64,000 bases of DNA from Steroidobacteraceae bacterium. GTDB taxonomy: Bacteria > Pseudomonadota > Gammaproteobacteria > Steroidobacterales > Steroidobacteraceae. Of the stretch, positions 12,798 to 54,529 are shown piece by piece. The translations under genes and the position numbers were made by a program. The notes under the pieces are model-generated. The model was not told the DNA's origin and ran no database searches. It saw nothing but the letters and a program-made list of their open reading frames with translations. Each line of letters opens with the position of its first letter. Positions within the stretch are counted from its first letter, which is position 1. The stretch covers positions 41,254 through 105,253 of the forward strand of contig DATFRO010000021.1 of the NCBI GenBank assembly GCA_035263105.1, in the 5' to 3' direction.

Positions 12798-13022
12798 GGG
12801 GGTTCCCTCCCGTCATGGACCGATACGGCGGCGCTGCCGGCGTTCGCCGGCAAGGCCGCCCAGAGGAGCCGCTTTTCCCGCCCGGCACCTGGTCAGCTCT
12901 TCTGGCCGTGACCAGCGCCGTGTCCGCGTCCTGCGCATCCTTGTCGGCAAATTCCTCGGGGCTTCCAGTTGCCCTAGATCCGCCGGCACCAGGCGGGAAA
13001 GCGACAACGCGTGAAGTCGAAG

Positions 13023-22867: not shown

Positions 22868-23055
22868 CCGGGCTCGAGCGGGCCGACGCCTGCACGGCGA
22901 TCGACAGCACGGATTTGCCTCGCCCCCGTCCTTATGTTTAGTCTGCTCTTGCCTTTCGCGGGTGGATGCGACCCACTGGCGGGAGGGCGGGCCGACCCTG
23001 GCGGAGTTCGGCCCGTACGAAAAGACCCTCGGCATCAGAAGGGGGCTCATCGACG

Positions 23056-28447: not shown

Positions 28448-31180
<2,733 letters not shown>

Positions 31181-31397
31181 CCCATGCTGCGCGGTGGCCA
31201 CTGGAGTGGTTCGCGATACTAGGGTGCCGGCAGGGTGGCTGCAATCGCAGCAACCGTGCGAGCGTCGCAATTCCTGCGCGCCTCGCTGGCGACGCACTCA
31301 TGTAACATGCGCTGCGCGCCGTGCTGAACGGAATTGATGCCGATCGGGCTGCGCAGGAGGTCGAGGGACGAACCAACGGACAGGAGAGGTACGCGCG

Positions 31398-38561: not shown

Positions 38562-38585
38562 AAGTGACAAAACGTGGGCTTCGGA

Positions 38586-38606
38586 ACCCGTGATGCATTC
38601 ACGGGT
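38586..38606 (+). terminator. hairpin after the radical SAM gene
   Basis: ACCCGTGA-TGCAT-TCACGGGT, an 8-bp stem 25 nt after the stop. There is no U-tract, so it is only a candidate. Confidence 0.35.
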
Positions 38607-38706
38607 CTACGATCGACGAAGCTTCACGTATACTGGCTGCAAAACCGGCCCAACCAGCGCGGCGAAGCTTTTCCTTCAATCCGTGCGTGTTCGGCTCGGG
38701 GGCTCC

Positions 38707-39426
38707 ATGAGCTGCACAGAGCGTCCGAATTTTTCTTCCTTCGACGGCCTCCCGCGCGTCGTTCCGGTTGCGGCGTTCCTGGCGTTGAGCCTCGCGGGTT
38801 GCATGCGTGCGCAGGTCGTGGAAAGCCGCGAATTCGCGACCCAGATCAGCAAGGACGAAGGCGTCGTGCTGCTTGCGAAGCCGCACGTCGAAGGCACCGG
38901 CACCGAGGAAGATTTCACCGACTGCGTCGCCTCGGATCTCTCGCGTGGCAAGTCATCGTTCCGTGTCGACGACAATCACAAGTTTGTCGACGCGCTGTTC
39001 CCCTGGTTCGAGCCCTCGACCGCACCGACGCGACCCGAGGGGCTGACCAGCCTCCTCAACAAGCCGCGCGTCGCGGAACGGCTCGCCGAAACCGGTGTCC
39101 GTTATGTCGTGTGGTTCGACGGTGAGACGCGCAAGACCGATGGCGGCGGCAGTATCGCCTGCGGTGCCGGGCCCGGCGGCGCCGGCTGTATCGGCTTCGG
39201 CTGGTGGGAAAAGGAATCCGATTACGTTGCTACTGTGTGGGACCTGAAGGAAACCCGCTCGGCTGGCACCGTGAGCACGAATGTGACAGGCACGTCCGCG
39301 CTGGTGGGCGCCATCATCCCGTTGCCGTTCATCGCGCGTGTGCAGGGCACCGCCTGCAATCGCATGGCCGACCAGCTGCGCTCTTTCCTGCGAGGCGATG
39401 ACCTCGCGGCGTCCTCCGCCCAGTGA
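38707..39426 (+). CDS. lipoprotein, first gene of the 12-gene operon
   Basis: Signal and lipobox VAAFLALSLAGC. No family recognised. The ATG at 38707 is preferred to the alternative start at 38590. Confidence 0.65.
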   Translation: MSCTERPNFSSFDGLPRVVPVAAFLALSLAGCMRAQVVESREFATQISKDEGVVLLAKPHVEGTGTEEDFTDCVASDLSRGKSSFRVDDNHKFVDALFPWFEPSTAPTRPEGLTSLLNKPRVAERLAETGVRYVVWFDGETRKTDGGGSIACGAGPGGAGCIGFGWWEKESDYVATVWDLKETRSAGTVSTNVTGTSALVGAIIPLPFIARVQGTACNRMADQLRSFLRGDDLAASSAQ

Positions 39427-39435
39427 GACCCTGAT

Positions 39436-41040
39436 ATGCGAAATCGCCTCATCGCCCTCTTCGTCATCGCAGCCCTGCTCGCTGCCTGCACCGGCATGCA
39501 GACCCAGGGCGGTGGCTCGTCCGGCGGATCTTCCGGCGGGTCCTCAGGCGGATCATCCGGATCCTCGGGTGGATCCTCAGGCGGTTCGTCGGGTTCCTCG
39601 GGTGGGTCTTCGGGCTCTTCGGGTGGCTCATCGGGCTCGTCAGGCGGGCAGACTGGGTCCTCCGGCGGATCGTCAGGCGGTCAGTCCGGCGGATCCTCGG
39701 GCGGCGATTCGGGTTCCTCAGGTTCTTCGGGTGGATCGGCTGGTACGGCGGGACCGCCGAGCTGGCCGAGCCCCAATGACTCCCCCAACGGCAGCTCGAA
39801 TGGCAGTGCCGGTGGGAGCGAGGGCGGCGGTAGTGATTCCCCGGGCGGCGGATCAGCAGGCACGGCAGGACCGCAGAGCTGGCCGAGCCCCAATGACTCG
39901 AGTGGCGGCAGCTCCGACGGCAGCGCTGGCGGCGGGTCCGAGGGCGGTGGATCTCAGTCCTCGACGACGTCCAGCAATGGCGGCGGCAGCAGTTCCGGCG
40001 CCGCGGGCGGCCAGGCGGGCAGTAACAGCTGGCCCTCTGGCGACAGCTCTTCGGGCGGCACCTCAGGGTCCGCGGGCGGCCAAGCCGGTGCTCAGGGCTC
40101 CGGTGGTCAGCAAGGCACGGACGGCCAGTCCGGAACGAGCGGTGGCGCCGGTGGCCCGTCAGGAAGCATGGGCGGTCAGCAAGGCGGCGGCGGCCAGCAA
40201 GGGAGCGGTGCGTCAGCGCAGTCCGCTGGAGCCGGCGGCCAGCAGGGCGCAGGTGCGGGTGGTGCCGGAGGCGCTGGTGGACAGCAGGGTGCCGGAGCCT
40301 CAGGAGCCGGAGGACAACAGGGCGCGGGCGCCGCAGGCGCCGGTGGCCAACAGGGTGCAGGTGCTGCGGGCGGTGGTCAGGCGGGCGTGAGAACCGCATC
40401 GGCCGGCGCCGGTGGCGCGATGAGTGGCGCCGGTAATGCCGGAGCGGGCGGCGTGGAGGGCCAGAACGGTGGTCCGGGACAGGGCCCCAACATGCCGGGC
40501 GGTGGCGGCGCACAGACCGATGCGGAACGCACGGCCGCTGCGAATGCGGCGATGGACGCCTCCCTCGGCGACTTCGACGAGAAGATCCGCAAGGAGCGCG
40601 AGCGGATTGCCAAGGAGCGCGATGCCGAGGCGGCGAACTCGCACGGCGCTTCCGGGGACTCGAGTGGCAGCAACGGCAGCTCGCCGGTCAGCGAAGGCGG
40701 CGGCGGCGCGGGGCGGCCCGGTGGCAATGACGGTGACCTGCGCTCCACGGGCGCAGGTTCTACGGGCGCCGGCGGCACGCCGGGCGCGGGTGGCGCATCC
40801 GGTTCTCCGGGCGGCACGAATTCTTCGGAGAAGGGCGGGCACGGTGGCGGTGGTGGCACCGGCGGCGGCGGCGGCAAAGGCGGCGGCGGCCCGAACTCCA
40901 CGCCCAAGAACATCCCGGATGGCAGTGACGATGACACGATCGCACGCCAGATTCGCGAAGCGGCGGAGAAGGAAACGGATCCGGAGCTCAGAGACAAGCT
41001 CTGGAAGGAATACATCGAGTACAAGAAGAACGCGCACTAG
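39436..41040 (+). CDS. lipoprotein with a Gly/Ser/Gln/Ala low-complexity region of about 330 aa and a charged helical C-terminal domain
   Basis: Lipobox LLAAC, GGSS-type repeats, two copies of a roughly 39-aa unit containing SAGTAGP(P/Q)SWPSPNDS, and GGQQGAGA repeats. The C-terminus is DDDTIARQIREAAEKETDPELRDKLWKEYIEYKKNAH. Confidence 0.7.
   Translation: MRNRLIALFVIAALLAACTGMQTQGGGSSGGSSGGSSGGSSGSSGGSSGGSSGSSGGSSGSSGGSSGSSGGQTGSSGGSSGGQSGGSSGGDSGSSGSSGGSAGTAGPPSWPSPNDSPNGSSNGSAGGSEGGGSDSPGGGSAGTAGPQSWPSPNDSSGGSSDGSAGGGSEGGGSQSSTTSSNGGGSSSGAAGGQAGSNSWPSGDSSSGGTSGSAGGQAGAQGSGGQQGTDGQSGTSGGAGGPSGSMGGQQGGGGQQGSGASAQSAGAGGQQGAGAGGAGGAGGQQGAGASGAGGQQGAGAAGAGGQQGAGAAGGGQAGVRTASAGAGGAMSGAGNAGAGGVEGQNGGPGQGPNMPGGGGAQTDAERTAAANAAMDASLGDFDEKIRKERERIAKERDAEAANSHGASGDSSGSNGSSPVSEGGGGAGRPGGNDGDLRSTGAGSTGAGGTPGAGGASGSPGGTNSSEKGGHGGGGGTGGGGGKGGGGPNSTPKNIPDGSDDDTIARQIREAAEKETDPELRDKLWKEYIEYKKNAH
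39508..40500 (+). repeat. coding low-complexity / tandem-repeat region (GGS, GGQQGAGA units), including a tandem duplication of about 117 nt at 39727-39960
   Basis: Read directly from the translation of 39436-41040. Synonymous codon variation between repeat units suggests the repeats are maintained at the protein level rather than arising from recent slippage. Confidence 0.8.
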
Positions 41041-41063
41041 TTGAGGTCGAGGATCAAGGAATC

Positions 41064-42359
41064 ATGACGGCTCTCAGGTTCACGCATTGCGGATTCGGCC
41101 GGGCGGCAGCCGTTTCCTTCGCACTGCTGCTCCTCGCCGCGCTGTCGGGATGCGTCGTCGAGGAAACGCGGCCCCTGCCCAAGGTGCACGCGGTGCAGGC
41201 GAAAGAGGAAATTCCGGCCGACGAGCTGCTCGATGTCGGCGTACGCATCTTCGATCCGGGCATTCCACCCGAGGTGGAGACCGACCCGACGGCCCAGGAG
41301 AAAGAGGGCATCTATCCCGACGTGCGCCGCGCCGAGGCGCGCTACATGTCGATGCTGCTCCGGAACACGCTCGAGACCACGGCGCAGTGGGGCGCAGTGC
41401 GCGTGATCCCTGCGACCGCCGAGTTCGTCGATGTGCTGGTCACCGGCAAGATCGTGAAGTCCACCGGCAAGGAGCTCGAGCTCCTCATCACCGTGCGCGA
41501 TTCGACCGGCCGCACCTGGTACACGGAAAAGAAATACGAACAGGAAGCGGACCTCGGCTCCTATCTGAGCGATGCGGCGCTCAAGGCCCGCGATCCGTTC
41601 CAGAACATCTACTCGACGATCGCGAACGACATGCTCGCGTTCCGCAACACGATCCCCGAGCCCGACCGGCGCATGGTTCGGCGCGTGACCGAGATGCGCT
41701 TCGCGCAGGACCTGGCCCCGAACGCCTATTCGGACTACGTGGTGCAGGACAAGGAAGGCCGCTACACGCTCAAGCGCCTGCCCGCGGATGGCGACCCGGT
41801 GTTCGAGCGCGTGCAGAAGGTCCGCGAGCGCGACGGCGCGCTGATCGACACCGTGAGCGACTACTACGGCAACTTCTACGATCACTTGAGTGAGCCGTAC
41901 GGCAACTGGCGCCGCTACAGCTATGACGAGATCAACAAGGAAGAGAAACTGAAGTCACAGGCGCGCACGCGCATGATCATGGGTGCCGCCGCCGTGCTCG
42001 GCAGCATCCTGGTGTCTTCGCAGTGCCCGGGCTCGGACTACAACTGCCGGCGCGTTGAGAGTGCGGTGCGCACGGCCGGCACCCTCGGCGGCATCGCCGG
42101 GATCATGAGCGGCCTGAAGAAGAACGCGGATGCAAAGATTCACACTGCGGCGATCAAGGAACTCGCGACCTCGTTCCAGACGGAAGTCGCGCCACAGGTG
42201 GTCGAAGTGGAAGGTCGCACCCTCAAGCTGACCGGCACGGCCGAGGACCAGTATCGCGAGTGGCGCGAGATGCTCAAGCAGATGTATATCGAGGAAACTG
42301 GCGGCGCGACCAACACGACGATCGCCGCGGGTAGCCCGACCACTACGACACCGCGTTGA
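41064..42359 (+). CDS. lipoprotein (431 aa) with a C-terminal Gly-rich hydrophobic segment
   Basis: Lipobox AALSGC, the later hydrophobic stretches MIMGAAAVLGSILV and GTLGGIAGIMSGL, and a Thr-rich tail. No family recognised. Confidence 0.65.
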   Translation: MTALRFTHCGFGRAAAVSFALLLLAALSGCVVEETRPLPKVHAVQAKEEIPADELLDVGVRIFDPGIPPEVETDPTAQEKEGIYPDVRRAEARYMSMLLRNTLETTAQWGAVRVIPATAEFVDVLVTGKIVKSTGKELELLITVRDSTGRTWYTEKKYEQEADLGSYLSDAALKARDPFQNIYSTIANDMLAFRNTIPEPDRRMVRRVTEMRFAQDLAPNAYSDYVVQDKEGRYTLKRLPADGDPVFERVQKVRERDGALIDTVSDYYGNFYDHLSEPYGNWRRYSYDEINKEEKLKSQARTRMIMGAAAVLGSILVSSQCPGSDYNCRRVESAVRTAGTLGGIAGIMSGLKKNADAKIHTAAIKELATSFQTEVAPQVVEVEGRTLKLTGTAEDQYREWREMLKQMYIEETGGATNTTIAAGSPTTTTPR

Positions 42360-42366
42360 GCTTCAT

Positions 42367-44685
42367 ATGCCGGGTTTGAACAGCGGGCAGCAACTGTCCG
42401 GGCGGTACAGTTTGCGCGAGCGACTCAGCGCCGGCCCGCTGGGTGAGACCTGGCGCGCACACGATTCCCAGCTCGATCGCGAAGTGGTCATCCGCCTGCT
42501 GCCGCAGGTGGCTCCCGCTGCGCTCGCGAGCGCGAACGCCGAGCTCGCGTCGGCCGAACAGCTCGATCCCGCCAGCATCGGCGCCGCGCGCAGCATCGAG
42601 CGCGATGGCGAGCAGCTCTACCTGGTTCGCGACTACGTTCCCGGCACCGATGTCTCCGCACTGCGCGCGGGCTCCTGGCGCGTCATCGCTTCCGCGGTGG
42701 CGGGAGCCGCGGACGCCCTCGCGAGGCTTCACCAGGCGGGACGCGTCCATCGCGACATCAAGCCCGGCAACATCGTGCAGCGACCGGATGGATCGGTGGC
42801 CCTCATCGATTTCGGCAACGCGGCGCTCGAGGGCGCGAACGCGCCGCACGGCGCGCTGTCGCGCTACAGCGCCAGCCCGCAACAGCTGGCCGGCGAGCCG
42901 GCGACGGCCGCCGACGATGCGTACGGCCTGGGTGCCGTGCTCTATGAGTTGTTGAGCGGCTACCCGCCGTTCTATCCGAATTTCAGCCGCGAGCGCGTGC
43001 TCTCCGAAGCGGTAGCGCCGCTCAAGCCGGCGCAGCCCGCGCCGCAGCCGCTCCTCGACCTGACCCTGCGGCTGCTGGCGAAGTCACCGGCCGAACGTCC
43101 CAGCGATCTCGCGCAGCTCGCACAGCAACTGCGTGAGCTGGTGAAGGGTGCAAACGACAGCGTCGCGAGCCCGAGCCGCGCGGCGGCCGGCTCGGATGCG
43201 GCGCCGGTCGTGACCATCGTGCGTCCGATCCTGCGTCCGGCCGCGCAAGGCGAGCGTACGAAGGCGGCGGCGGGTCCGCAGCGCCGCTGGTTGATCGGCG
43301 CCGCGTTCGCGCTGCTCGTGCTGCTCGCCCTCACGGTGCTGGTCGTGCTGCCGAGGTTCGTGCAGCGGCCGGCGGCCACGAGCACTGCACCCACCACCGC
43401 GAAGACTGCGCCCGCGCCCAAGCCTGCAGAGCCCGTCGAACCGGACCTGCGCACGCTCGCCGAGCAGATGCAGGAGGCCGAGCAGGTGCGCGACCAGTAC
43501 GACTCGCTCTACGAGTCGCTCGACAAGCGCGCCGTGAAAGAGTGGGCGCCGCAGCCCTTTGCCGCTGCGACCCACCACGGCGAAGAGGCGCGCAAGCACT
43601 ACTCCGTGCGCGAGTTCAAGGAATCAAAGGACGCGTACACCGCCGGCCTCGAAGAGCTGCGCAAGGCCGACGCGCTCGCCGAGCCGACGCTGCGCACGCA
43701 GATCGAAAAAGGCGAAGCCGCCCTCGTCGCCGGCCAGTCGGCCGCCGCACAAGCAGCCTTCACGCTCGCACTCAAGATCGATCCCGCGAACGCCGCTGCG
43801 ACCAGGGGCCTCAAGCGCGCGGGCACGCTCGACCAGGTGAACGCATTGCTGGCTAATGCGGCGAGCGCGGAGCGCACCGGCCAGCTGCCGCTCGCTGTGC
43901 AGCAGTTCGAAGAAGCCCTCAAGCTCGATCCCGACACGACAGCGGCGCGCGATGGCGCCGCACGCGTGCGTGCGCGCATCTCCGGCGACCAGTTCGCGGC
44001 CGCGATGTCGCAGGGGCTGGCACAACTTTCGGCGGGCAAGCTCGACGCGGCACGCGCGGCGTTCGAGCGTGCCAAGGGCATTCGCCCGAACGCACCGGAA
44101 GTGACCGATGCCTTGAACCAGGTCGCGCAGCAGCAGACCACGCTCACCATCGCGCAGCGTCGCGAGCAGGGAGAAAAGTTCGAGCACATCGAGCGCTGGG
44201 ATCTCGCCGTGGCCCAATACGATGCGGCCCTGAAGCTCGATCCGGGTCTCGAGTTCGCGCTCGCGGGCCGTGCCCGTGCCGCTCCGCGCGCGGAAATGGC
44301 CCAGCAGCTCGATGCGGTCATCAAGCAGCCGGAGCGGCTCCTCTCGGCCTCGGTGCGCGAGCAAACCAAGGCCTTGGTGGCGGCGGCGAACAAGGTCGAT
44401 CCGCAGGGCCCGCTGCTGCGCCAGCAGGTGACGACGGTGACCGCGAGCCTCGCCCAGTTCGAGGCGCCGGTGCGCATCGCGCTGGAATCGGATAACCAGA
44501 CGCAGGTGGTGATTCACCGCGTCGGTCAGCTCGGCATGTTCGACCACCGTGAGATCGACCTGCAGCCGGGCACTTACACGGTGATGGGAACCCGGGTCGG
44601 GTATCGCGATGTCCGCCGCGAGATTACAGTGATACCCGGGAAGGCACTCCCGCCCCTCATCGTGCGCTGCGAGGACCGCATTTGA
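42367..44685 (+). CDS. atypical Ser/Thr kinase-like protein: kinase domain - TM - TPR repeats - C-terminal PEGA-like domain
   Basis: HRDIKPGNIV and DFG are present. The Gly-loop is degenerate (SAGPLGE) and the VAIK lysine is replaced (VVIRLL). TM: WLIGAAFALLVLLALTVLVVL. TPR-like repeats follow, ending with PGTYTVMGTRVGYRDVRREITV. Confidence 0.8.
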   Translation: MPGLNSGQQLSGRYSLRERLSAGPLGETWRAHDSQLDREVVIRLLPQVAPAALASANAELASAEQLDPASIGAARSIERDGEQLYLVRDYVPGTDVSALRAGSWRVIASAVAGAADALARLHQAGRVHRDIKPGNIVQRPDGSVALIDFGNAALEGANAPHGALSRYSASPQQLAGEPATAADDAYGLGAVLYELLSGYPPFYPNFSRERVLSEAVAPLKPAQPAPQPLLDLTLRLLAKSPAERPSDLAQLAQQLRELVKGANDSVASPSRAAAGSDAAPVVTIVRPILRPAAQGERTKAAAGPQRRWLIGAAFALLVLLALTVLVVLPRFVQRPAATSTAPTTAKTAPAPKPAEPVEPDLRTLAEQMQEAEQVRDQYDSLYESLDKRAVKEWAPQPFAAATHHGEEARKHYSVREFKESKDAYTAGLEELRKADALAEPTLRTQIEKGEAALVAGQSAAAQAAFTLALKIDPANAAATRGLKRAGTLDQVNALLANAASAERTGQLPLAVQQFEEALKLDPDTTAARDGAARVRARISGDQFAAAMSQGLAQLSAGKLDAARAAFERAKGIRPNAPEVTDALNQVAQQQTTLTIAQRREQGEKFEHIERWDLAVAQYDAALKLDPGLEFALAGRARAAPRAEMAQQLDAVIKQPERLLSASVREQTKALVAAANKVDPQGPLLRQQVTTVTASLAQFEAPVRIALESDNQTQVVIHRVGQLGMFDHREIDLQPGTYTVMGTRVGYRDVRREITVIPGKALPPLIVRCEDRI

Positions 44686-47108
44686 GTCTTGCCCTGCGTC
44701 TGCGTGAGCCCCTCGGCGAACGCGCCATCTCGGCCAACGATCTGCCCCTTGCCCTCGGCGGCGAGGGCGCGAGTCTTGCCGTTCCCGGCGTGCCGCCAGG
44801 CGTGACCGCCGCCTACATCGGCTTCGACGAGCAGACCCCATACATCGAAGCCGTGGCGGACTCGGGCATCCCCGTGCTGCTCAACGGCCGCGCGCTGCGC
44901 GAACGCACGCCGCTCCTGCATGGCGATGTGATCCGCCTCGGCGATGCGCAGATCCTGTGCGCGGCGCGCGCCGGCACCGTCAACCTCGAGGTGATCCACC
45001 AGGAAGGCAACCAGACGCAGCCGCCGATCGTCGATCCGTCCGAGCAGGAGGAAGAGGTCGAGCTCGCGCCCGACTCGCAGGCGATCCGCCGCGTGGCGTT
45101 CAAGCCCGTGCTCGCGCCGCGCCAGCAGGTGCGGCGCAGTGCGACGCCCCAGCGCATCGGCCTCACCGCCGGCCTCACGGTGCTGTTCCTCGCGCTCTTC
45201 TACCTGGTGACGGCGAAGCCCCTGATCCTTGTCATCGACCCGCCCGACGCGAAGCTCGACTTCCGCGGCACGACGTTCGACTTCCGCGCCGGCGATCGCG
45301 TGCTCATGCGCCCGGGCAACTACAGCGTGGTCGCAACGCGCGCGGGCTACGAAACCGCGCAGCTCCCCGTGCACTTCAAGGGCGACAAGGGCGAGCAACT
45401 GAAGATCCGCCTCGCCAAGCTCCCCGGGCAGATCCACATCGACACGAATGGTGTGGCGGGCACGCTCAGCATCGACGGCAAGCCCGTCGGGCCCGTGCCG
45501 GGCGACTACCCGGTGACCGCCGGCAAACGGGAATTTCGCATCAGCGCGCCGCGCTACGAGGACTTCGCCGCGGCCGTGGAAGTGAAGGGTCTCGGCGAGA
45601 AACAGCGTGTCAACGCAAAGCTCAAGCCTGCGTTCAGTCCGGTGACGATCGAGTCCGAACCCGCGGGCGCGGCCGTCGCACTGGATGGCAAGGACCTCGG
45701 CGTGACGCCCCTGACAGTGCCGATCGATGCCGGCAGCTACTCGCTCACCCTCACGGCTGCGGGCTTTCGGCGCTGGGAGAGCTCGATCCAGGTGAAGGCG
45801 GACGCGCCGCAGAAGATCGGCCCGGTGAAGCTGGGCCTGCCGGATGGCGTTTTGCTGGTGCGCTCCACGCCCTCGCAGGCCGACGTCAATATCGGCGGCC
45901 GTTACCGCGGCCGCACGCCGCTCGACGTGAGTCTCGCGCCGGGTGTGCAGTACGAAGTGGTCGTGAGTCACTCGGGCTATGAAGACGGGCGGCGCGCCGT
46001 GCCCTCGAAGCCGGGAGAGCGGTCGGCGGTCGAGATGACCCTCAAGCCGATTCTCGGCGACGTCACGATTCGCGGCGATCCCGCGGATGCGCAGCTCTTC
46101 GTCGACGGCCAGCCGCGCGGGCCGGCCAACCAGACGATCGGGCTGCCCTCGACCGAGCTCTCGATCGAGATCCGTCGCGAGGGCTACCAGCCGTTTGCGA
46201 CCAAGGTCGTGCCGCAGCCGGGCCTCACGCGCGTGCTCGAATACCGCCTGCTCACGCCCGAGCAGGTGCGCCAGGCGCGCATTCCGCCGGTGATCCGCAC
46301 GCACACGGGCGGGCAGCTGCGCCGCATACCGACGGGCCATTACGTGATGGGCAGTTCACGCCGCGAGCCGGGCCGGCGCACCAACGAAGTCGAGCACGAA
46401 GTGGTGTTGCAGCGGCAGTTCTATGTGGGCGTATACGAAGTGACGAACGCCGAGTTCCGCCAATTCCAGCCCGAGCATTTGTCGGGCGTGGTGCGCGACC
46501 GCTCGCTCGACCAGGATGATCACCCGGTCGTCAACGTGACCTGGAATGATGCCGCGGCCTACTGCAATTGGCTGAGCGGGCAGGATGGACTCCCGCCTGC
46601 GTACACACAGCAGGGGGATACGTACGTGTTGGCGAAGCCGGTCACCACCGGATACCGCTTGCCGACCGAAGCGGAGTGGGAATGGGCCGCGCGCTACGAG
46701 AACGGACAGGCCACCCGGCGCTATCCCTGGGGCGCCTCGCTCCCGGTCCCGGAGAATTCAGGGAACTTTGCCGACAAACGGGCGCTCGCAGTCAACGCTA
46801 CCGCCGTAGAGAACTATGAGGACGGATTCGTGACCACGGCCCCGGTGGGCAAGTTTCCGGCAAGCCCGCTCGGGCTGTACGACATCGGCGGGAACGTGAC
46901 CGAATGGGTCCATGATTTCTACACTGTGTATCCGGAAGGGTCACCGATGACGACCGACCCGCTGGGACCCGACTCGGGGCCCCAGCACGTCGTGCGCGGT
47001 TCGAGCTGGCGCAGCGCCAATGTGGCGGAGCTGCGCCTGGCGTGGCGCGAACACGCGGACGGCAAGGCGCAACACATCGGCTTCCGGATTGCGAGGTACG
47101 CTGAATGA
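44682..47108 (+). CDS. FHA-like domain - TM - five PEGA-like domains - formylglycine-generating-enzyme (FGE/SUMF1) type domain
   Basis: N-terminus ...VLLNGRALRERTPLLHGDVIRLGDAQI (divergent FHA). TM: IGLTAGLTVLFLALFYLV. Repeated units end in GYETA, RYEDF, GFRRW, GYEDG and GYQPF. The C-terminus has HPVVNVTWNDAAAYCNWLS ... YRLPTEAEWEWAAR ... GNVTEWVHDFY ... RGSSW ... GFRIAR. Confidence 0.8.
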   Translation: MSLALRLREPLGERAISANDLPLALGGEGASLAVPGVPPGVTAAYIGFDEQTPYIEAVADSGIPVLLNGRALRERTPLLHGDVIRLGDAQILCAARAGTVNLEVIHQEGNQTQPPIVDPSEQEEEVELAPDSQAIRRVAFKPVLAPRQQVRRSATPQRIGLTAGLTVLFLALFYLVTAKPLILVIDPPDAKLDFRGTTFDFRAGDRVLMRPGNYSVVATRAGYETAQLPVHFKGDKGEQLKIRLAKLPGQIHIDTNGVAGTLSIDGKPVGPVPGDYPVTAGKREFRISAPRYEDFAAAVEVKGLGEKQRVNAKLKPAFSPVTIESEPAGAAVALDGKDLGVTPLTVPIDAGSYSLTLTAAGFRRWESSIQVKADAPQKIGPVKLGLPDGVLLVRSTPSQADVNIGGRYRGRTPLDVSLAPGVQYEVVVSHSGYEDGRRAVPSKPGERSAVEMTLKPILGDVTIRGDPADAQLFVDGQPRGPANQTIGLPSTELSIEIRREGYQPFATKVVPQPGLTRVLEYRLLTPEQVRQARIPPVIRTHTGGQLRRIPTGHYVMGSSRREPGRRTNEVEHEVVLQRQFYVGVYEVTNAEFRQFQPEHLSGVVRDRSLDQDDHPVVNVTWNDAAAYCNWLSGQDGLPPAYTQQGDTYVLAKPVTTGYRLPTEAEWEWAARYENGQATRRYPWGASLPVPENSGNFADKRALAVNATAVENYEDGFVTTAPVGKFPASPLGLYDIGGNVTEWVHDFYTVYPEGSPMTTDPLGPDSGPQHVVRGSSWRSANVAELRLAWREHADGKAQHIGFRIARYAE

Positions 47109-47521
47109 ACACGCCCATCAGAGACTCCACACGAACACCGCGCCGTTACCCGGCGGCGTGGATCACGCTCGCGCTCCTGGCGCTCGCACCGGTTGGTGCG
47201 CTGGTGTCACAGGATGCGCCCAAGCCCGCGACGCCGGAGGAAGGAGCACCGGCTGCGAAGGAAGCACCGCCGGCCGCAAAGAAGACGCCGGCGTCAAAGC
47301 CCGCGGCGGACTCCACCAAGCCCGCTGCTGATTCGACCAAGGCCTCCACTGCGAAAGCGCCTGCCGCGGGTGCTGACAAAGGCGAGGCCGGCAAAGCGCC
47401 AGCCAACGGCGAGCAGGCCGACAAGGGCGACGACATCGACAAGTCGCAGGCTCCTACCATCTTCGTTCCAACCCAGAAAACATCGGCAGACAACAGTGCA
47501 ACATTCCCGATCGACATCTGA
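47105..47521 (+). CDS. membrane-anchored or secreted Ala/Pro/Lys-rich protein (TolA/TonB-spacer-like)
   Basis: N-terminal hydrophobic helix AAWITLALLALAPVGALV, then KPATPEEGAPAAKEAPPAAKKTPASKPAADSTKPAADSTK.... Third-position GC supports this frame over the overlapping Arg-rich frame. Confidence 0.65.
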   Translation: MNTPIRDSTRTPRRYPAAWITLALLALAPVGALVSQDAPKPATPEEGAPAAKEAPPAAKKTPASKPAADSTKPAADSTKASTAKAPAAGADKGEAGKAPANGEQADKGDDIDKSQAPTIFVPTQKTSADNSATFPIDI

Positions 47522-48353
47522 AGCCTCCGCGCCAGCCCCGGCTGCGCGCGCGACGCCACGCAGCTCTCAGCAGAGCGAGTTCCTCTTCAGCACCTTCGCG
47601 TTGATCATCACCGCGATCCTGGTGCATGCGCTCTACGTGGTGCACATCCGCCCGCGCGGCGACGCCATCATGGCCGAGCAGTTCGCGAAGATGCGCGTCC
47701 AGGCCAACTACGTGCCGGAGCGCTCGATCTACATCGTGGTGCACGAGTACGAGCCCGAGGTGTGCATCATCCTGATGATCTGGTCGCTGATCCTGCTGGG
47801 TCATCGCATGGTCGACAATCGCGCACAGCGCAAGCTCCTGGCATCGGGACTGCTCAACATCCCGCCGGGCATGCGCATCCTGCCGAAGGACACGCGCGAG
47901 TACGCGCGACAGATGGAAGCGCTCGATCCCAAGACCCAGGAGCTGCTCCTGCCGCGCGCGATCGTGGCATCGCTCGAGCGCTTCGGCTCGACCGACAACA
48001 TCCATGACGCCGCCGAGGCGGGCCGCGCGGTGTGCGAGTCCGAGGCCGAGCGTCTCGACTCCGAGCTCTCGATGGTGCGCTACACGGTGTGGGCGATTCC
48101 CGCCATCGGGTTCGTCGGCACGGTGCGCGGTATCGGCGCGGCGCTCCAGCAGGCGCACCAGGCGGTGTCCGGGAACATCAGTGGCGTCACCGAAGCGCTC
48201 GGCATCACCTTCAACGCCACGTTCACCGCGCTCACCTCGAGCATCATCGTGATGTTCTTCCTGCACCAGCTGCAGCTCGCACAGGAACGCATGGTGCTCG
48301 ATACCTCGAGCTACCTGGACCAGCATCTGCTGCGGCACATGCGCGCGTCCTGA
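47496..48353 (+). CDS. MotA/TolQ/ExbB-family proton-channel protein (3-TM ExbB/TolQ topology)
   Basis: TM1 FLFSTFALIITAILVHALYVV, a long cytoplasmic loop, then IPAIGFVGTVRGIGAAL ... GVTEALGITFNATFTALTSSIIVMFFLH, which parallels P-IGL-GTV-GI ... GIAEAL ... of ExbB/TolQ. No in-frame ATG precedes TM1, so the GTG at 47496 is proposed as the start (uncertain). Confidence 0.75.
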   Translation: MQHSRSTSEASAPAPAARATPRSSQQSEFLFSTFALIITAILVHALYVVHIRPRGDAIMAEQFAKMRVQANYVPERSIYIVVHEYEPEVCIILMIWSLILLGHRMVDNRAQRKLLASGLLNIPPGMRILPKDTREYARQMEALDPKTQELLLPRAIVASLERFGSTDNIHDAAEAGRAVCESEAERLDSELSMVRYTVWAIPAIGFVGTVRGIGAALQQAHQAVSGNISGVTEALGITFNATFTALTSSIIVMFFLHQLQLAQERMVLDTSSYLDQHLLRHMRAS

Positions 48354-48379
48354 AGCCGAACCAGCCGAGCACGATCACC

Positions 48380-49750
48380 GTGAGCAGGGGTGCCATCGAG
48401 ATCAACGACGCCGGCGTGCTCGTCGCCGTCGATGGTGTCGTGCGGCAATCGAGTCCCGGCTACGCGTTGCTCGATCGCGAGCCCACCGTGGTGGGCGAAC
48501 CGGCGCTGCACGCCGCGCGCATCGAGCCGCTCAACATCAACAATCGCTTCTGGAACGAGCTCGACGAGCGGCCGCTCCTGGTGCGCGCCGCCGCCGGACG
48601 CTCGCATGCGGATCTCGCGTACCTGCACCTCGCGCACATCTGGCGCGACCTTGCCGAGCCGCCGCAGGCCGTGCGCTTCGCGGTGCCGGCGACGTTGCGC
48701 CCGCAACAGCTGGCGCTCCTCCTCGGGATCGCGCGGGAAGCGCGTGTGCCGGTGGCCGGGTTCGTCGACACGGCCGTCGCGCTGGCCAGCACTGCGCCCG
48801 ATAGCGGCCGGCTGCTCTACGTCGATGTCCATTTGCACCACACGGTGATCACCGCAGTCGCCGTCGGCGAGCGCGCACGCCGTGAGCGCTCCGAGCTCGC
48901 GCGCAATGCGGGCTGGCTCGCATTCACCGACACGTGGTTGAGCATGGTCGGCCGCGAGTTCGTGGCGCGCACCCGCTTCGATCCGCTGCATCGCGCCGCC
49001 GTCGAGCAGCAGTTGTTCGACGCGTTGCCCGGCTGGCTCGAGCAGCTGCAGACGAGCGATGCGATCGAGATCGAGCTGCCGTTCGAGGGCGAGACGCATT
49101 CGGTGCGGCTCACGCGCGAGCAATTCGCGCTCGAGGCCGACGGTCTCTACACGGAGCTCCTGATGCGCGTGCATCGGCTGCGCACGCCGGGCCACGCGAC
49201 CACCATCGTGCTCGGCGACCGCGCCGCACTGTTGCCCGGGCTCGCGCAACGCTTTGCCGAATTCAACGACTGCAACGTGGTGCGCAGCTCCCCGGGCGCC
49301 GCCGTGATTGCCGCCGCCGCGCTCGACGGCGAGGCGACGGGCGATGACACCGTGCAACTGCTATGCGCGACGCCGCGTCTCGATGCGGGGATCACGCGCC
49401 TGCCGTGGAAGAGCCTGCAGGATGCGCGCCCGGCGGATGTCGTGGCCGCGCCTTCGCACCTTTTGTATCGGGGGCAGGCCGTGGCACTCGGTCCCGAACC
49501 GTTGCACATCGGTCTCGCCCCGCCGCGCGATCGCGGCCCGGCGCTCAGCGTGGTCGGCGCCGCGGCCGGTGTGTCACGCCTGCATTGTTCGGTGTTGCGC
49601 CTGCCGAGCGGCGCCGTGGTCGTCGATCACAGCCGCTACGGCACCTGGCTCAACGACGAGCGGGTCTTCGGCCGCGCGACGCTGCGCGCCGGCGATCGCC
49701 TGCGGCTCGGCCGCCCGGGCGTGACACTCGAGCTGATCACTTCGGGCTGA
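48380..49750 (+). CDS. degenerate Hsp70/actin-like (ASKHA) domain protein with C-terminal FHA domain
   Basis: The ordered motif analogues are AIEINDAG (phosphate 1), FAVPA, GFVDTAVALAS (compare IINEPTAAA), LLYVDVHLHHTVITAV (compare DLGGGTFDV), IVLGDRAALLPGL (compare LVGGSTRIP) and PGAAVIAAAAL. The FHA is GVSRLHCSV ... DHSRYGTWLNDERV ... LRAGDRLRLG. A GTG start is proposed (uncertain). Confidence 0.65.
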   Translation: MSRGAIEINDAGVLVAVDGVVRQSSPGYALLDREPTVVGEPALHAARIEPLNINNRFWNELDERPLLVRAAAGRSHADLAYLHLAHIWRDLAEPPQAVRFAVPATLRPQQLALLLGIAREARVPVAGFVDTAVALASTAPDSGRLLYVDVHLHHTVITAVAVGERARRERSELARNAGWLAFTDTWLSMVGREFVARTRFDPLHRAAVEQQLFDALPGWLEQLQTSDAIEIELPFEGETHSVRLTREQFALEADGLYTELLMRVHRLRTPGHATTIVLGDRAALLPGLAQRFAEFNDCNVVRSSPGAAVIAAAALDGEATGDDTVQLLCATPRLDAGITRLPWKSLQDARPADVVAAPSHLLYRGQAVALGPEPLHIGLAPPRDRGPALSVVGAAAGVSRLHCSVLRLPSGAVVVDHSRYGTWLNDERVFGRATLRAGDRLRLGRPGVTLELITSG

Positions 49751-49753
49751 GCC

Positions 49754-50854
49754 ATGCCGCGCAATCGCCGCCACACCGAAGTGTTCACGATGTCGTTCCT
49801 CGACTGCATCTGCTGCGGTTTCGGCGCGGTCGTGCTCGTGTACGTGATCATCAGCGCGACTGCGGGCGTCACCCGCGTGCACCAGGACGACGACCTCAAG
49901 GGCGAGGTCAACAAGCTCGAGGAGCAGGTGCTCGAGGGCTACAAGAACCTGGTCGTGTTGCGCAACACGACGCAGGTGACCACCAGCCAGTCGAGCAAGG
50001 CCTCCGGGCGCATCGCGCAGATCCTCGAGGAGCTGGAGAAGACGCGCGTCGAGCTCTCGACCTACACCGGCGACACGCTCTCGAAGCAGGAGCACATCAA
50101 CCAGCTCAAGTCCGACATCCGCGCGCTGGAAGAGGGCAACCGGCGCCTGGAAGCGGGCTCGAAGGACGTCGCCGAAGCCGGGCAGAACGTGCGCGCCTTC
50201 AAAGGCACCGGCAACCGGCAATACCTCACCGGCATCACGGTCACCGGCAAGCACGTGCTCATCCTCATCGACATGTCGGCGAGCATGCTCGATGAGACGC
50301 TGGTCAACATCCTGCGCATGCGCAACCTCCCGGACATCCAGAAGATGCTCGCGCCGAAGTGGCAGCGCGCGGTCTCGACCGTCGACTGGCTGACGACGCA
50401 GATTCCGCCCGACAGCGAATTCCAGGTGTACGCGTTCAACACCGAAGCGCACTCGATGATCGAGGGGAGCGACGGCAAGTGGCTCAAGGCGACCGACCCG
50501 CGTCCGCTCAACGCCGCGGTGGCAAAGCTCAGGCACACGCCGCCGCACGACGGCACGAGTCTCATCAATGCGTTCAACGCCGCAAAGACGCTCGATCCAC
50601 TGCCCGACCAGATCCTGCTGATCACCGATGGGCTCCCGACGCAGGGCGCGACCGCGCCCGCGATCCGCAAGGCGGTGGAAGTCGAGCAGCGCGCGAAGCT
50701 CTTCGATCAGTCGCTGGGGGCGCTGCCGCCGCACGTGCCCGTGAGCACCATCCTGATGCCGATGGAAGGCGATCTGCCGGCGCCCGCGCGCTTCTGGCGC
50801 CTGGCGCGTGAGACCGGCGGTGTCTTCATGATGCCGGCGAAGGACTGGCCATGA
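49754..50854 (+). CDS. ExbD/TolR-like N-terminal TM (with Asp) - coiled coil - vWA domain protein, paralog 1
   Basis: N-terminus MPRNRRHTEVFTMSFLDCICCGFGAVVLVYVI (compare TolR EINIVPLLDVLLVLLLIF), about 110 aa of coiled coil, and a vWA with MIDAS DMSAS ... GTS ... ITDG. Confidence 0.75.
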   Translation: MPRNRRHTEVFTMSFLDCICCGFGAVVLVYVIISATAGVTRVHQDDDLKGEVNKLEEQVLEGYKNLVVLRNTTQVTTSQSSKASGRIAQILEELEKTRVELSTYTGDTLSKQEHINQLKSDIRALEEGNRRLEAGSKDVAEAGQNVRAFKGTGNRQYLTGITVTGKHVLILIDMSASMLDETLVNILRMRNLPDIQKMLAPKWQRAVSTVDWLTTQIPPDSEFQVYAFNTEAHSMIEGSDGKWLKATDPRPLNAAVAKLRHTPPHDGTSLINAFNAAKTLDPLPDQILLITDGLPTQGATAPAIRKAVEVEQRAKLFDQSLGALPPHVPVSTILMPMEGDLPAPARFWRLARETGGVFMMPAKDWP

Positions 50855-51834
50855 AGCTCAAGCGCCACACCACCGAAGTCTTCAGCATGTCGTTCCTCGA
50901 CTGCATCTGCTGCGGCTTCGGCGCGATGATCCTGATCCTGGTGCTCACCGAGACCGGCCAGCCGATCGTGCTGGAGAAAGTGCGCACCGACATGCACGGC
51001 CAGGTGGCGAAGTTGCAAGCCGAGCTCTACGAGATCCGCGGCGAGACCGACATCCTCAACCGCGACCTGAAGGGCCGCATCGAGCAGCTGTCACTCGAGA
51101 AGAGCAAGCTCGCGAAACTGCAGGGCGACCTGAGCACCGTCAAGGGCCAGTACCAGAGCAGCCAGAAGGAATCGGAGATCGAGAATACCGAGGAGGGACA
51201 GCTCGTATCCGCGTACCAAAAGCTGACCGACGAGATGGAACGGCTCCTCAAGGCCGGCTACCACCGCCCGAAGAATTCCGCCATCGGCGGCATCCCCGTC
51301 GACAGTGAGTACATAATCTTCGTGGTCGACACGTCGGGCAGCATGCAAGAGAATCACTGGGACCAGGCGCGCAAGATGATGGAGGAAATCCTCGACATCT
51401 ACCCGCACGTCAAGGGCATCCAGGTGATGGACGACGAAGGCGCTTACATGTTCGATGGCTATCGCGGCCAGTGGATCGCGGACACGCCCGCGCGGCGCAA
51501 GGCGATCATGGACCGCTTCAAGACCTGGACCTCGTTCAGCAACTCGAACCCGGTCGAAGGGTTGCTTGCGGCCGTGCGCACGTTCTGGGCCCCGGACAAG
51601 AAAGTGAGCGTCTATTACTTCGGCGACGACTTCCCCGGCGAGTCGATCCAGGCCGTGCTCGACCAGATCGATCGCGCCAATCACAGCGAGAGCGGCGAGC
51701 GCCGCGTGCGCATTCACGCCATCGGCTTCCCGATGCCGCCGCGCGCGCCGCAATTCGGCAACACGCGCTACAGCGCGCTGATGCGCCAGGTGTGCGAGAG
51801 GAACGGCGGCACCTTCGTCGGCATGGAAAGCTGA
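50851..51834 (+). CDS. ExbD/TolR-like N-terminal TM (with Asp) - coiled coil - vWA domain protein, paralog 2
   Basis: N-terminus MKLKRHTTEVFSMSFLDCICCGFGAMILILVL is nearly identical to paralog 1. A coiled coil follows, then a vWA with MIDAS DTSGS. ATGA overlap with paralog 1. Confidence 0.75.
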   Translation: MKLKRHTTEVFSMSFLDCICCGFGAMILILVLTETGQPIVLEKVRTDMHGQVAKLQAELYEIRGETDILNRDLKGRIEQLSLEKSKLAKLQGDLSTVKGQYQSSQKESEIENTEEGQLVSAYQKLTDEMERLLKAGYHRPKNSAIGGIPVDSEYIIFVVDTSGSMQENHWDQARKMMEEILDIYPHVKGIQVMDDEGAYMFDGYRGQWIADTPARRKAIMDRFKTWTSFSNSNPVEGLLAAVRTFWAPDKKVSVYYFGDDFPGESIQAVLDQIDRANHSESGERRVRIHAIGFPMPPRAPQFGNTRYSALMRQVCERNGGTFVGMES

Positions 51835-52874
51835 TGCACACAAAGAAAGCGTTGGGAGGACTCGCGCTCCTCCTGCTGGTCGCCGCGGGATTCAGCGGCT
51901 GCGGTGGCGTGAACATCGCGACCGAGTCGAACATGCCCACGCCGCTCGTCGACCAGATACCGGTCACGGTCGGGATCTACTACAGCGACGATTTCGCGAA
52001 GGCCACGCACGCCGAGGAACGCTGGGGCACGGACTGGAAGGTCGATCTCGGCCCTTACCACGTGCACATGGCGGACAAGCTCTTTGCCGCGGAATTCCGC
52101 GAGACCGTGGCGGTCACCGACATCAAGTCCTTGCCGCAGGACCCACCGTACAAGGCCATCCTCGAGCCGCGCATCGAGCAGTTCTCCTTCATCACGCCGC
52201 GCGACACCGGCGCGAAGTACTTTGCGGTCACGATCCGCTATCGGCTGAACGTCTATGCGCCGAACGGCACGCTGGCCGATTCGCTGACCTTCACCGGTTA
52301 CGGCAGCAACGGTGCGGGCAGCGGCATGACGAGCACCAAGCCGATGATCGCGGCGACCAAGGCGGCGATGCGCGATGCCGCGGCCAAGTTCCTGGTGCAG
52401 TTCCCCGAGCAGGATGTCGCGAAGCGCCTCATCGCCGGCGAGCCGTTGGTCGAGGCGAAGCAGCAGGTCGCGCTCGGCGGCGCTGCCGGGGCTGGCGCGG
52501 CGGCGGGTGCGAGCGACAGCGTGAAAGTGGATACCGTGCCCATCGTCGATCCGACGCCGGAAACCGCGGCGCCAGGGGCGGTCCCCGGACAACCTGCGCC
52601 GGCGCGAGCGCCGGCGGCGACTACCACGCCGGCCGCAGGCGGCCAGGCGCCGAGCACGGACGCGCCCAAGCCGCCGGCAGAGTCGCAACCGACCACGGAT
52701 CAACCGTCGTCGCCAACGCCGTCCGGCAGTGAAACACCCCCGACGCGGACAACGGGCGGCGAGACACCGACACCGCCATCGGCCGGAGACGCGAAGACGC
52801 CGCCGGGCGCAGACAACAAGACGCCGGCGTCCGGCGGCGACTCACCGCCGCCTTCGACGCAGCCGCCGAATTAG
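51834..52874 (+). CDS. lipoprotein with Pro/Thr/Ala-rich C-terminal tail, last gene of the operon
   Basis: MHTKKALGGLALLLLVAAGFSGC lipobox, a globular part of about 200 aa, then a tail of about 120 aa rich in P/T/A/G. TGATG overlap with the preceding gene. Confidence 0.7.
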   Translation: MHTKKALGGLALLLLVAAGFSGCGGVNIATESNMPTPLVDQIPVTVGIYYSDDFAKATHAEERWGTDWKVDLGPYHVHMADKLFAAEFRETVAVTDIKSLPQDPPYKAILEPRIEQFSFITPRDTGAKYFAVTIRYRLNVYAPNGTLADSLTFTGYGSNGAGSGMTSTKPMIAATKAAMRDAAAKFLVQFPEQDVAKRLIAGEPLVEAKQQVALGGAAGAGAAAGASDSVKVDTVPIVDPTPETAAPGAVPGQPAPARAPAATTTPAAGGQAPSTDAPKPPAESQPTTDQPSSPTPSGSETPPTRTTGGETPTPPSAGDAKTPPGADNKTPASGGDSPPPSTQPPN

Positions 52875-54378: not shown

Positions 54379-54529
54379 GCGCCGTCCTCCACCGGAACCG
54401 ACCGGGCCCGCGCACGCCATGAAGAACACGCGTCAGTATACCCAGCCTCGGGGACGGGTCGGCACGGCACGGAGATGAACTTGGACATTCAGGTGCAGGA
54501 CGAGTTCGTCCCGGCCAGGGCCGGCTCGG

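Follow-up and report, generated by a model that had tools for sequence, protein, structure and literature searches.

Known ion-driven motors of the five-to-two (5:2) type are few, and each of them powers a major envelope process: flagella, nutrient import, outer-membrane stability, gliding or secretion, and phage defence. Here we describe a gene cluster at positions 38707-52874 of a window of 64,000 nucleotides (by which we mean the whole stretch of DNA analysed), taken from contig DATFRO010000021.1 of a Steroidobacteraceae metagenome-assembled genome (MAG) and with a G+C content of about 67%. On balance, we favour the interpretation that this cluster, together with the convergent gene that follows it, would encode a machine of twelve components that spans the envelope, has an ion-driven 5:2 motor at its centre and is under kinase control. 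A motor consisting of a TolQ-like channel and von Willebrand factor A (vWA) proteins with a trans-pore helix (TPH) has been predicted in silico for Proteobacteria ('Origin and Evolution of Bacterial Periplasmic Force Transducers', Mol Biol Evol 2025, Fig. 4c-d; PMC12204202). According to that study, TPH-vWA proteins are 'predominantly found in heterologous pairs' and possess a TolR/ExbD-like trans-pore helix with a conserved Asp, AlphaFold 3 places the paired proteins inside a TolQ-like pentamer, and these pairs make up the second vWA family of the study, seeded from Idiomarina (I. loihiensis); the function of the motor is unknown and no phenotypes are reported (PMC12204202). The genes discussed below, and the sequences that border them, are as follows (window coordinates; TM, transmembrane; aa, amino acids).

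Leader, 38562..38706, + strand: 145 nt between a radical-SAM gene and g1, with short hairpins (GGGCTTCGGAACCC; CCCGTGA...TCACGGG)
g1, 38707..39426, + strand: lipoprotein, 239 aa, lipobox LAGC, no known domain
g2, 39436..41040, + strand: lipoprotein, 534 aa, lipobox LAAC, repetitive Gly/Ser-rich linker that varies in length, conserved helical C-terminal region
g3, 41064..42359, + strand: lipoprotein, 431 aa, lipobox LSGC, no Pfam family, Gly-rich hydrophobic stretch at about residues 305-345
g4, 42367..44685, + strand: cytoplasmic Hanks-type Ser/Thr kinase, one TM helix (309-327), periplasmic TPR, weak PEGA-like C-terminus
g5, 44682..47108, + strand: cytoplasmic degenerate FHA, TM helix (159-177), PEGA repeats, FGE-sulfatase-fold domain
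g6, 47105..47521, + strand: small exported protein; signal peptide, Ala/Pro/Lys-rich linker (variable), C-terminal motif (invariant)
g7, 47496..48353, + strand: MotA/ExbB/TolQ-superfamily channel subunit, 285 aa, GTG start, 26-nt overlap with g6
g8, 48380..49750, + strand: cytoplasmic Hsp70-like nucleotide-binding domain (NBD; actin fold) with a C-terminal FHA domain
g9, 49754..50854, + strand: ExbD/TolR-like trans-pore helix (SFLD17), helix of about 100 aa, vWA domain with a complete metal-ion-dependent adhesion site (MIDAS)
g10, 50851..51834, + strand: paralog of g9 with the same N-terminal helix, Asp17, coiled coil, vWA domain with DTSGSM
g11, 51834..52874, + strand: lipoprotein, 346 aa, lipobox FSGC, Pro/Thr/Ala-rich tail, no known domain
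Convergent TPR and TonB_C gene, 52906..54429, - strand: lies 31 nt past g11; signal peptide, periplasmic

Comparison with described motors and phosphorylation systems

The locus shares several features with the predicted TPH-vWA motor: a MotA/TolQ-like gene (g7) without a tolR or exbD partner, one gene upstream of the vWA pair; two heterologous single-pass vWA proteins (g9 and g10) with an Asp in the N-terminal helix; pore Thr residues that are kept in the channel subunit; and proteobacterial hosts. In these described features, genes g7, g9 and g10 thus appear to match that motor. The published account comprises motor and vWA genes only, whereas here a kinase, FHA/Hsp70-like and PEGA-FGE proteins, lipoproteins, a TPR-TonB_C protein and a protein ending in FPxDI co-occur with them, and g8 sits between the channel gene and the vWA pair. 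Literature searches recovered no paper describing the full cluster (a Ferrigenium preprint and a paper on MotAB evolution were checked and are unrelated to it). Consequently, the claim of an undescribed system, made in an earlier reading of the sequence alone (hereafter the sequence-only reading), holds for the whole cluster within the literature found, whereas its core of a TolQ-like channel and paired TPH-vWA proteins had already been predicted in 2025 (PMC12204202).

Resemblance to the ExbB-ExbD-TonB and TolQ-TolR-TolA-Pal systems extends from g7, which belongs to the same superfamily and has equivalents of T145, T178 and E173, and the Asp-bearing trans-pore helix, to the TonB_C protein, the TPR protein (cf. 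CpoB) and the outer-membrane lipoproteins encoded alongside, and a transfer of energy from the proton-motive force (PMF) to the outer envelope would be expected in both cases. Unlike in Ton and Tol, there is no ExbD/TolR periplasmic domain, the TonB_C domain is carried by a TPR protein with a signal peptide instead of an SHLS-helix anchor, g7 probably has four TM helices as in MotA, and a kinase/FHA/Hsp70-like cytoplasmic module is added. Membership of ExbBD-TonB is not supported, given that the cluster contains no ExbD family match and no TonB-dependent receptor. Nor is it a Tol-Pal system, since TolR, TolA, the TolB beta-propeller and the Pal OmpA-like lipoprotein were not detected in the cluster of the window; an OmpA-like gene occurs in the Woeseiaceae-type variant only. 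A MotAB stator is likewise not indicated, as g9 and g10 end in vWA domains and no flagellar genes are found among the flanking genes examined.

The presence of a Hanks-type kinase alongside FHA and vWA proteins, with the kinase being transmembrane and having a periplasmic sensor, recalls the PpkA-PppA-Fha1 system and the archaeal ArnA(FHA)-ArnB(vWA)-ArnC/D system. The present locus differs from these systems in having neither type VI secretion system (T6SS) genes nor archaellum genes, in lacking a PP2C phosphatase, in placing the vWA domains on the putative motor axle in the periplasm, and in fusing the FHA domain to an Hsp70-like NBD. In particular, neither the cluster nor the flanking genes examined include the PP2C phosphatase or the T6SS core genes of PpkA-PppA-Fha1. 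The cluster also encodes no AAA+ domain such as that of the MoxR ATPase partner expected in a Bat/MoxR-vWA system, and matches to BatA and BatB are solely generic matches to the vWA fold. With Zorya considered below, the locus therefore lacks the defining features of Tol-Pal, ExbBD-TonB, Mot, Zorya, Bat/MoxR-vWA and PpkA-Fha1 alike, from all of which the sequence-only reading had set it apart.

The candidate motor core

The motor is the best-supported part of the mechanism that we propose. The channel subunit g7 matches the Pfam family MotA_ExbB (PF01618, 7.2e-11), and in an alignment with E. coli TolQ and ExbB its GTV corresponds to TolQ T145, its NAT to T178 and its TM Glu to E173, all of which are kept; the Thr ring of the channel is thus conserved, with the segments GTVRG and FNAT of g7 aligning with T145 and T178. 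Similarity to TolQ itself is distant (21 bits for the tolQ model against a cut-off of 221), and because g7 carries an additional N-terminal hydrophobic segment, its topology is probably one of four TM helices, as in MotA. Sequence searches of the PDB with g7, g8 and a vWA profile returned no meaningful relatives.

The adjacent genes g9 and g10 encode proteins that are 24% identical to each other, yet share a near-identical N-terminus (R-x-T-E-V-F-x-M-S-F-L-D-C-I-C-C-G-F-G-A). Their N-terminal helix (SFLDCICCGFGA), with D17 in each protein, resembles PLLDVLLVLL of TolR and PFIDVMLVLL of ExbD, and the Asp is invariant in 159/159 g9-type and 135/135 g10-type sequences (158 and 134 homologs, respectively, plus the window copies). 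VWA_2 lies above its Pfam cut-off in g9, and the vWA matches of g10 fall below theirs. Both paralog families have an invariant MIDAS DxSxS, and the g9 type conserves the Thr and Asp of this site as well (in g9 itself, D173xS175xS177, T268 and D292). In a structural model of g9, the TM helix leads into about 100 helical residues of low confidence and then into a vWA domain with a predicted local distance difference test (pLDDT) score of about 90, which matches generic vWA structures, BatA and BatB included. No ExbD, TolR or MotB domain was found in the cluster with Pfam or NCBIfam. The combination of a MotA/ExbB-type ring with intact pore residues and two Asp-bearing helices, in a cluster lacking ExbD, TolR and MotB, is therefore the signature expected of a 5:2 motor with a g9/g10 heterodimer as its axle. 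These data bear out the channel subunit and the two paralogs of TM(Asp)-coiled-coil-vWA architecture that had been recognised in the sequence-only reading, along with its suggestion that the parts for a PMF-driven motor are present.

In more distant TPH-vWA relatives (P0452, P0491, P0492, P0504 and P0505), the SFLD helix and a C-terminal DWP are kept, and the MIDAS is degenerate (EASGGML, RASGSML), which hints at a subfamily that may no longer bind metal.

Organisation of the cluster

The block comprises 11 co-directional genes on the + strand, which are separated at the ten junctions from g1 to g11 by +9, +23, +7, -4, -4, -26, +26, +3, -4 and -1 nt, such that start and stop codons overlap at five of the ten. 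Within 38707-52874, terminator-like and promoter-like sites do not exceed shuffled expectation. An operon with this strand arrangement, these ten junctions, the 145-nt hairpin-bearing leader and the convergent neighbour had been described in the sequence-only reading, and all of these features stand; the gene number given at the time does not, since there are 11 genes in the block rather than twelve, and the accompanying gene list itself sums to 11.

Independent gene calls on the source contig (ENA ERZ27257142) have identical starts and lengths for 10/11 genes, and agree on the GTG start of g7, which overlaps g6, and on the TTG start of g5. The sole exception is g2, which is split in those calls because its Gly/Ser-rich tandem repeats lead automatic gene callers to divide it. 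The long g2 reading frame is backed by its own lipobox and by a 243-aa homolog in locus L001 that has the same layout of lipobox, linker and conserved C-terminus. The linker is encoded by several imperfect tandem repeats with periods of 12-33 nt (window 39520-40890), which specify Gly/Ser- and Gly/Gln/Ala-rich sequence, and the length of g2 among relatives ranges from 243 to 534 aa.

Conservation and variants across genomes

A genome scan with the vWA alignment returned the 80 closest loci, most of them from Steroidobacteraceae, including cultured Steroidobacter and Peristeroidobacter, as well as MAGs labelled Nevskiaceae or Lysobacterales. The gene set is found in a near-constant order in about 60 genomes of Steroidobacterales, Nevskiales and Lysobacterales; among close relatives, tblastn and jackhmmer recover the order g3-g4-g5-(g6)-(g7)-g8-g9-g10-g11, followed by the convergent TPR-TonB_C gene. 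More distant loci were obtained by scanning metagenomes with 50%-identity representatives (26-41% mutually identical, the first being 31% identical to g9). There, identity of the vWA proteins to the query is 30-36%, the order is g2-g3-g4-g5-g6-g7-g8-g9-g10-g11-g1, and the proteins are annotated only as hypothetical or 'VWA domain-containing'. Exact-sequence look-up assigns them to Haliea (including cultured H. atlantica), Woeseiaceae, Pseudohongiellaceae and Desulfobacterales. At the level of the family, 1,652 vWA representatives were collected at E <= 1e-3 from a 50%-clustered library. When the 45-residue trans-pore helix alone was used as a profile, the search returned solely frameshifted fragments of <85 aa, one of which lies on a contig that carries the same cluster in a poor assembly.

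The same gene order recurs in well over 100 independent loci, as would be expected of the single, tightly packed, multi-component envelope system that had been envisaged, and the cluster is more than a chance juxtaposition. Co-occurrence in other genomes had also been named in the sequence-only reading as a test of its proposal, and is borne out among the loci with enough flanking sequence to be counted (59 genome loci and 18 distant metagenome loci). The kinase g4, the PEGA-FGE protein g5 and the Hsp70/FHA protein g8 each accompany the vWA pair in 56/59 genome loci and in 17-18/18 distant loci; when g3 is included, synteny of g3, g4, g5 and g8 with the pair is found in 53-56/59 and 17-18/18, respectively. 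The channel gene g7 is present in 43/59 genome loci and in 18/18 distant metagenome loci, and every full-length locus tabulated has two adjacent vWA open reading frames. Four distant loci (L110, L121, L145 and L160) lack g8. A Woeseiaceae-type clade of eight loci (L151, at 12285-13016, and L120, L134, L146, L152, L153, L156 and L164) has a gene for a Gly-zipper, coiled-coil and OmpA-family peptidoglycan-binding protein directly after the vWA pair, in place of g11 and g1.

An alternative under which unrelated operons have come to lie side by side, for instance a kinase/PEGA pair, a separate motor/vWA unit and assorted lipoproteins, could draw on the absence or relocation of the MotA/ExbB gene in some loci, the occurrence of isolated vWA pairs and the four loci without g8, but is already contradicted by the synteny data and is highly improbable, given that the order from g2 or g3 to g10 is kept at 30-36% vWA identity, across orders and into a different phylum, and that start and stop codons overlap at five junctions.

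Kinase, PEGA-FGE and Hsp70-like proteins

The kinase g4 matches Pfam Pkinase (5.8e-22) and TPR, and its family conserves HRD, DFG and the catalytic Asn. Of the architecture previously proposed for it, the kinase, TM and TPR portions are confirmed, whereas the C-terminal PEGA domain is weakly supported (hhalign probability 48%).

In g5, profile-profile comparison with hhalign relates the N-terminus to the FHA domain of g8 (96% probability, E 2.5e-9), and Pfam detects four PEGA repeats (1.5e-47) and an FGE-sulfatase domain (4.1e-51). The FHA-like, TM and FGE portions of the earlier assignment were accordingly recovered, and the five PEGA repeats that it contained become four in Pfam. The best NCBIfam match of g5 is GldK (TIGR03525, 2.3e-35), at 122.7 bits against a cut-off of 350. 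A census of Cys residues found no conserved pair in the C-terminal segment of the FGE domain; true FGE enzyme activity was for this reason rejected, and the domain is probably non-catalytic and PorK/GldK-like.

The third protein, g8, has no TM segment and shares 100% identity with an NCBI protein of a Steroidobacteraceae MAG. Its AlphaFold2 model (pLDDT 92) matches the NBD of DnaK/Hsp70 in Foldseek searches (E 5e-18; TM-scores of about 0.66-0.74 on entries comprising the NBD only), and its C-terminal FHA domain (Pfam, 1e-7) conserves S399, R400, H402 and N425 (S-R-x-H and N). The Hsp70/actin-like protein with an FHA domain that had been read from the translation is thus substantiated.

Lipoproteins, g6 and the TPR-TonB_C protein

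A lipobox is present in each of g1, g2, g3 and g11, as the sequence-only reading had it, and Asp is at position +2 in none, such that all four are predicted to be sorted to the outer membrane by the E. coli rule. Of the four, g3 is the best conserved; the C-terminus of g2 is conserved in tblastn and jackhmmer matches, and a g1 homolog lies downstream of g11 in distant loci. No credible domain was found in g1, g2, g3, g6 or g11 with Pfam and NCBIfam at lax thresholds, under which matches of the lipoproteins and g6 to tRNA-synt_His and DUF families were dismissed as noise.

The g6 protein ends in the motif P-[ST]-E-x-[VI]-x-[AE]-D-x-x-V-[ST]-F-P-[VI]-D-I-COOH, which is invariant across lineages. 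It is found at this gene position in 94/111 loci (spanning L003-L164), and only 103/23,421 open reading frames of the whole set end in this manner. The product had been taken for an anchored Ala/Pro/Lys-rich spacer, but a protein that has a signal peptide and ends in a conserved motif is the better description; a TonB/TolA-like anchor was considered and rejected, as the signal peptide is cleavable and there is no SHLS-type helix. The C-terminal peptide may be a ligand of either the vWA MIDAS or the TonB_C domain.

The convergent gene at 52906-54429 matches Pfam TPR_12 (7.6e-28) and TonB_C (26.0 bits; cut-off, 24.6), and its product has a signal peptide. It is present in 64/70 related genome loci, and in Haliea-type loci (L099, L103, L114, L118 and L122) it opens the operon and shares the strand of the other genes. 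Because of this co-directional position, we regard the TPR-TonB_C gene as belonging to the system, of which it is the twelfth member.

Neighbouring genes

The genes that flank the cluster are housekeeping genes, and the same neighbours are found in L001, L165 and the window, namely a radical-SAM gene upstream and DUF2062, epimerase and VanZ genes downstream. The gene directly upstream (window 36447-38561, + strand) encodes a radical SAM protein of the PA0069/Rv2578c family, into which an intein bearing a LAGLIDADG homing-endonuclease domain is inserted; its homolog in L001 is only 361 aa long and hence intein-free. Farther upstream in the window are two more signalling genes, for a coiled-coil protein of 845 aa that has an FHA domain at its C-terminus (22966-25503, + strand) and for a 949-aa Ser/Thr kinase with many TPR repeats (28448-31297, - strand).

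Alternative functions for the cluster

An apparatus for secretion or surface adhesion, similar to the T9SS (type IX secretion system) or to the gliding machinery, offers one alternative. Here g7 with g9/g10 would take the place of GldLM/PorLM, the g5 FGE domain that of PorK/GldK and the lipoproteins that of PorN-like ring partners, and the whole would move or export a surface protein. In the design of GldM/PorM, a 5:2 motor bears a dimeric stalk that reaches far into the periplasm, which speaks for this alternative, and the present cluster would share with GldLM/PorLM-PorKN a 5:2 motor with such a stalk, lipoprotein partners and, as in PorK/GldK, an FGE-sulfatase-fold partner that lacks the conserved C-terminal Cys pair. 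The ranking of GldK/PorK (TIGR03525) as the best NCBIfam match of the g5 FGE domain also favours it, as does the precedent of CglB, a vWA adhesin that works with a Tol-like motor in Myxococcus gliding (PMC9946355). However, the GldK match is far under its cut-off, and neither it nor GldL, GldM or GldN is reached at curated cut-offs, the GldK match being sub-threshold only. No GldL, GldM, GldN, SprA/Sov-like protein, outer-membrane barrel, secretin or cargo-like gene was found in the cluster. Moreover, the g5 FGE domain is on a PEGA stalk anchored in the inner membrane instead of on a lipoprotein, there is no translocon, and the hosts are Proteobacteria and Desulfobacterota, unlike the Bacteroidota in which the T9SS/gliding core occurs. 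The host taxa are not known to glide, which also counts against this alternative, and we regard an apparatus of this type as unlikely.

A second alternative is that the MotA-like/TPH-vWA unit senses perturbation of the envelope and signals inward through the kinase, FHA and Hsp70-like proteins, as a Zorya-type sensor of envelope state or an anti-phage defence. ZorAB is a MotAB-like 5:2 unit that is used in sensing, which is a point in its favour. Furthermore, conflict systems often contain kinase, FHA, vWA and Hsp70-like modules (PMC7159879), and g4 matches the PADLOC PD-T4-6 and mad6 kinase models. Against this, none of the ten proteins scanned (g1-g10) has a PADLOC Zor match, PADLOC gives nothing past coiled-coil noise for g5, g7, g8, g9 and g10, and no nuclease, protease or other effector domain was found with Pfam or NCBIfam. 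The cluster keeps a stable syntenic position by the same housekeeping genes across an order, and this constancy of flanks and neighbours among relatives argues against a mobile defence island; a tblastn search of plasmids with g9 found no copies. As the PADLOC results amount to generic kinase matches and coiled-coil noise only, assignment to a defence system was rejected, and a function of this kind seems quite improbable.

Proposed mechanism

We therefore return to the envelope-spanning machine with a kinase-controlled 5:2 motor. What the sequences establish is the structure of the genes, the folds of the domains, the invariance of catalytic and binding residues and a synteny that extends across orders, and from these we infer the stoichiometry, use of the PMF, phospho-control, binding partners and output of the putative machine. 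Under this model, five copies of g7 would form a channel ring in the inner membrane, in which the axle would be a g9/g10 heterodimer instead of ExbD, TolR or MotB. The N-terminal helices of g9 and g10 would supply the proton-accepting Asp, and their helical stalks of about 100 residues would hold two vWA/MIDAS heads in the periplasm, so that proton flow might turn or pull the stalk. Since the MIDAS sites are invariant, the periplasmic heads may bind an acidic ligand by means of a metal ion. They could act in this way on g5 (PEGA-FGE, PorK-like), on the TPR-TonB_C protein and on the four predicted outer-membrane lipoproteins, with the acidic and invariant C-terminal peptide of g6 as a possible further partner. 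On the cytoplasmic side, phospho-threonine marks would be made by g4, a transmembrane kinase with a TPR sensor in the periplasm, and the FHA domain of g8 might read these marks and thereby gate assembly or activity; phospho-dependent gating of this kind fits the cytoplasmic location of the kinase, the g8 FHA domain and the degenerate g5 FHA domain, and their co-inheritance with the motor. Our best guess for the physiological output is a Tol-Pal-like tethering or remodelling of the envelope, because the TonB_C and TPR proteins, the lipoproteins and, in one clade, the OmpA-type gene suggest a force-transducing role nearer to Tol-Pal than to secretion.

Several observations weigh against this model. 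With regard to the motor, g7 is not within 10 kb of the vWA pair in about 16 Steroidobacteraceae-type loci (L001, L028, L034, L039, L042, L049, L051, L052, L055, L057, L061, L064-L066, L074 and L075), or about a quarter of Steroidobacterales-type loci, although the vWA proteins of these loci retain the Asp-bearing helix. It is relocated in three others, upstream and on the opposite strand in L090 and after the pair in L089 and L115, and in three loci (L076, L048 and L058) the vWA pair stands by itself in unrelated surroundings. The more distant TPH-vWA relatives have degenerate MIDAS motifs, and no outer-membrane beta-barrel is encoded in the cluster. The window kinase has a degenerate Gly-loop, and Arg at the position of the beta3 Lys (K43R, VVIRLL), a replacement shared with five or six close relatives (Lys is found in 58/67 homologs), and in the lineage of the window g4 may consequently be weak, inactive or atypical. 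The FHA-like domain of g5 lacks the phospho-threonine-binding residues (S-x-x-H), no phosphatase is encoded in the cluster, and the phosphate-2 loop of g8 is conserved but non-canonical (D-x-H-L-H, here DVHLHH), which makes the ATPase competence of g8 uncertain.

As to the isolated pairs, that of L076 (9995-12120), from Peristeroidobacter soli, is of the g9/g10 type and lies among genes for cytochrome-c maturation and ABC transporters, with other cluster genes not nearby.

Implications

A further step can be taken only tentatively. It is quite possible that this putative, widely conserved trans-envelope nanomachine of twelve proteins represents a new functional class of ion-driven 5:2 motor, to be placed beside Mot, Ton, Tol, Agl-Glt, GldLM and Zorya, whose rotating or pulling axle would itself bear integrin-like MIDAS heads, in which a eukaryotic-like kinase would license activity by way of the Hsp70-like protein with its FHA domain, and whose task in the envelope would be one not assigned to known systems. 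The parts list and the invariant residues given here (Asp17, the MIDAS motif, the FPxDI-COOH tail and the FHA pocket) turn a brief published prediction into testable hypotheses, for which cultured carriers exist in Steroidobacter (S. agaridevorans, S. gossypii), Peristeroidobacter (P. agariperforans) and Haliea atlantica. If the model is true, the abundant soil, freshwater and marine sediment bacteria that carry the cluster (Steroidobacterales, Woeseiaceae, Halieaceae and Desulfobacterales) would possess a variant 5:2 motor whose Asp-bearing axle ends in vWA/MIDAS domains, and which would be the first 5:2 motor with a dedicated control module of Ser/Thr kinase, FHA and Hsp70-like proteins.

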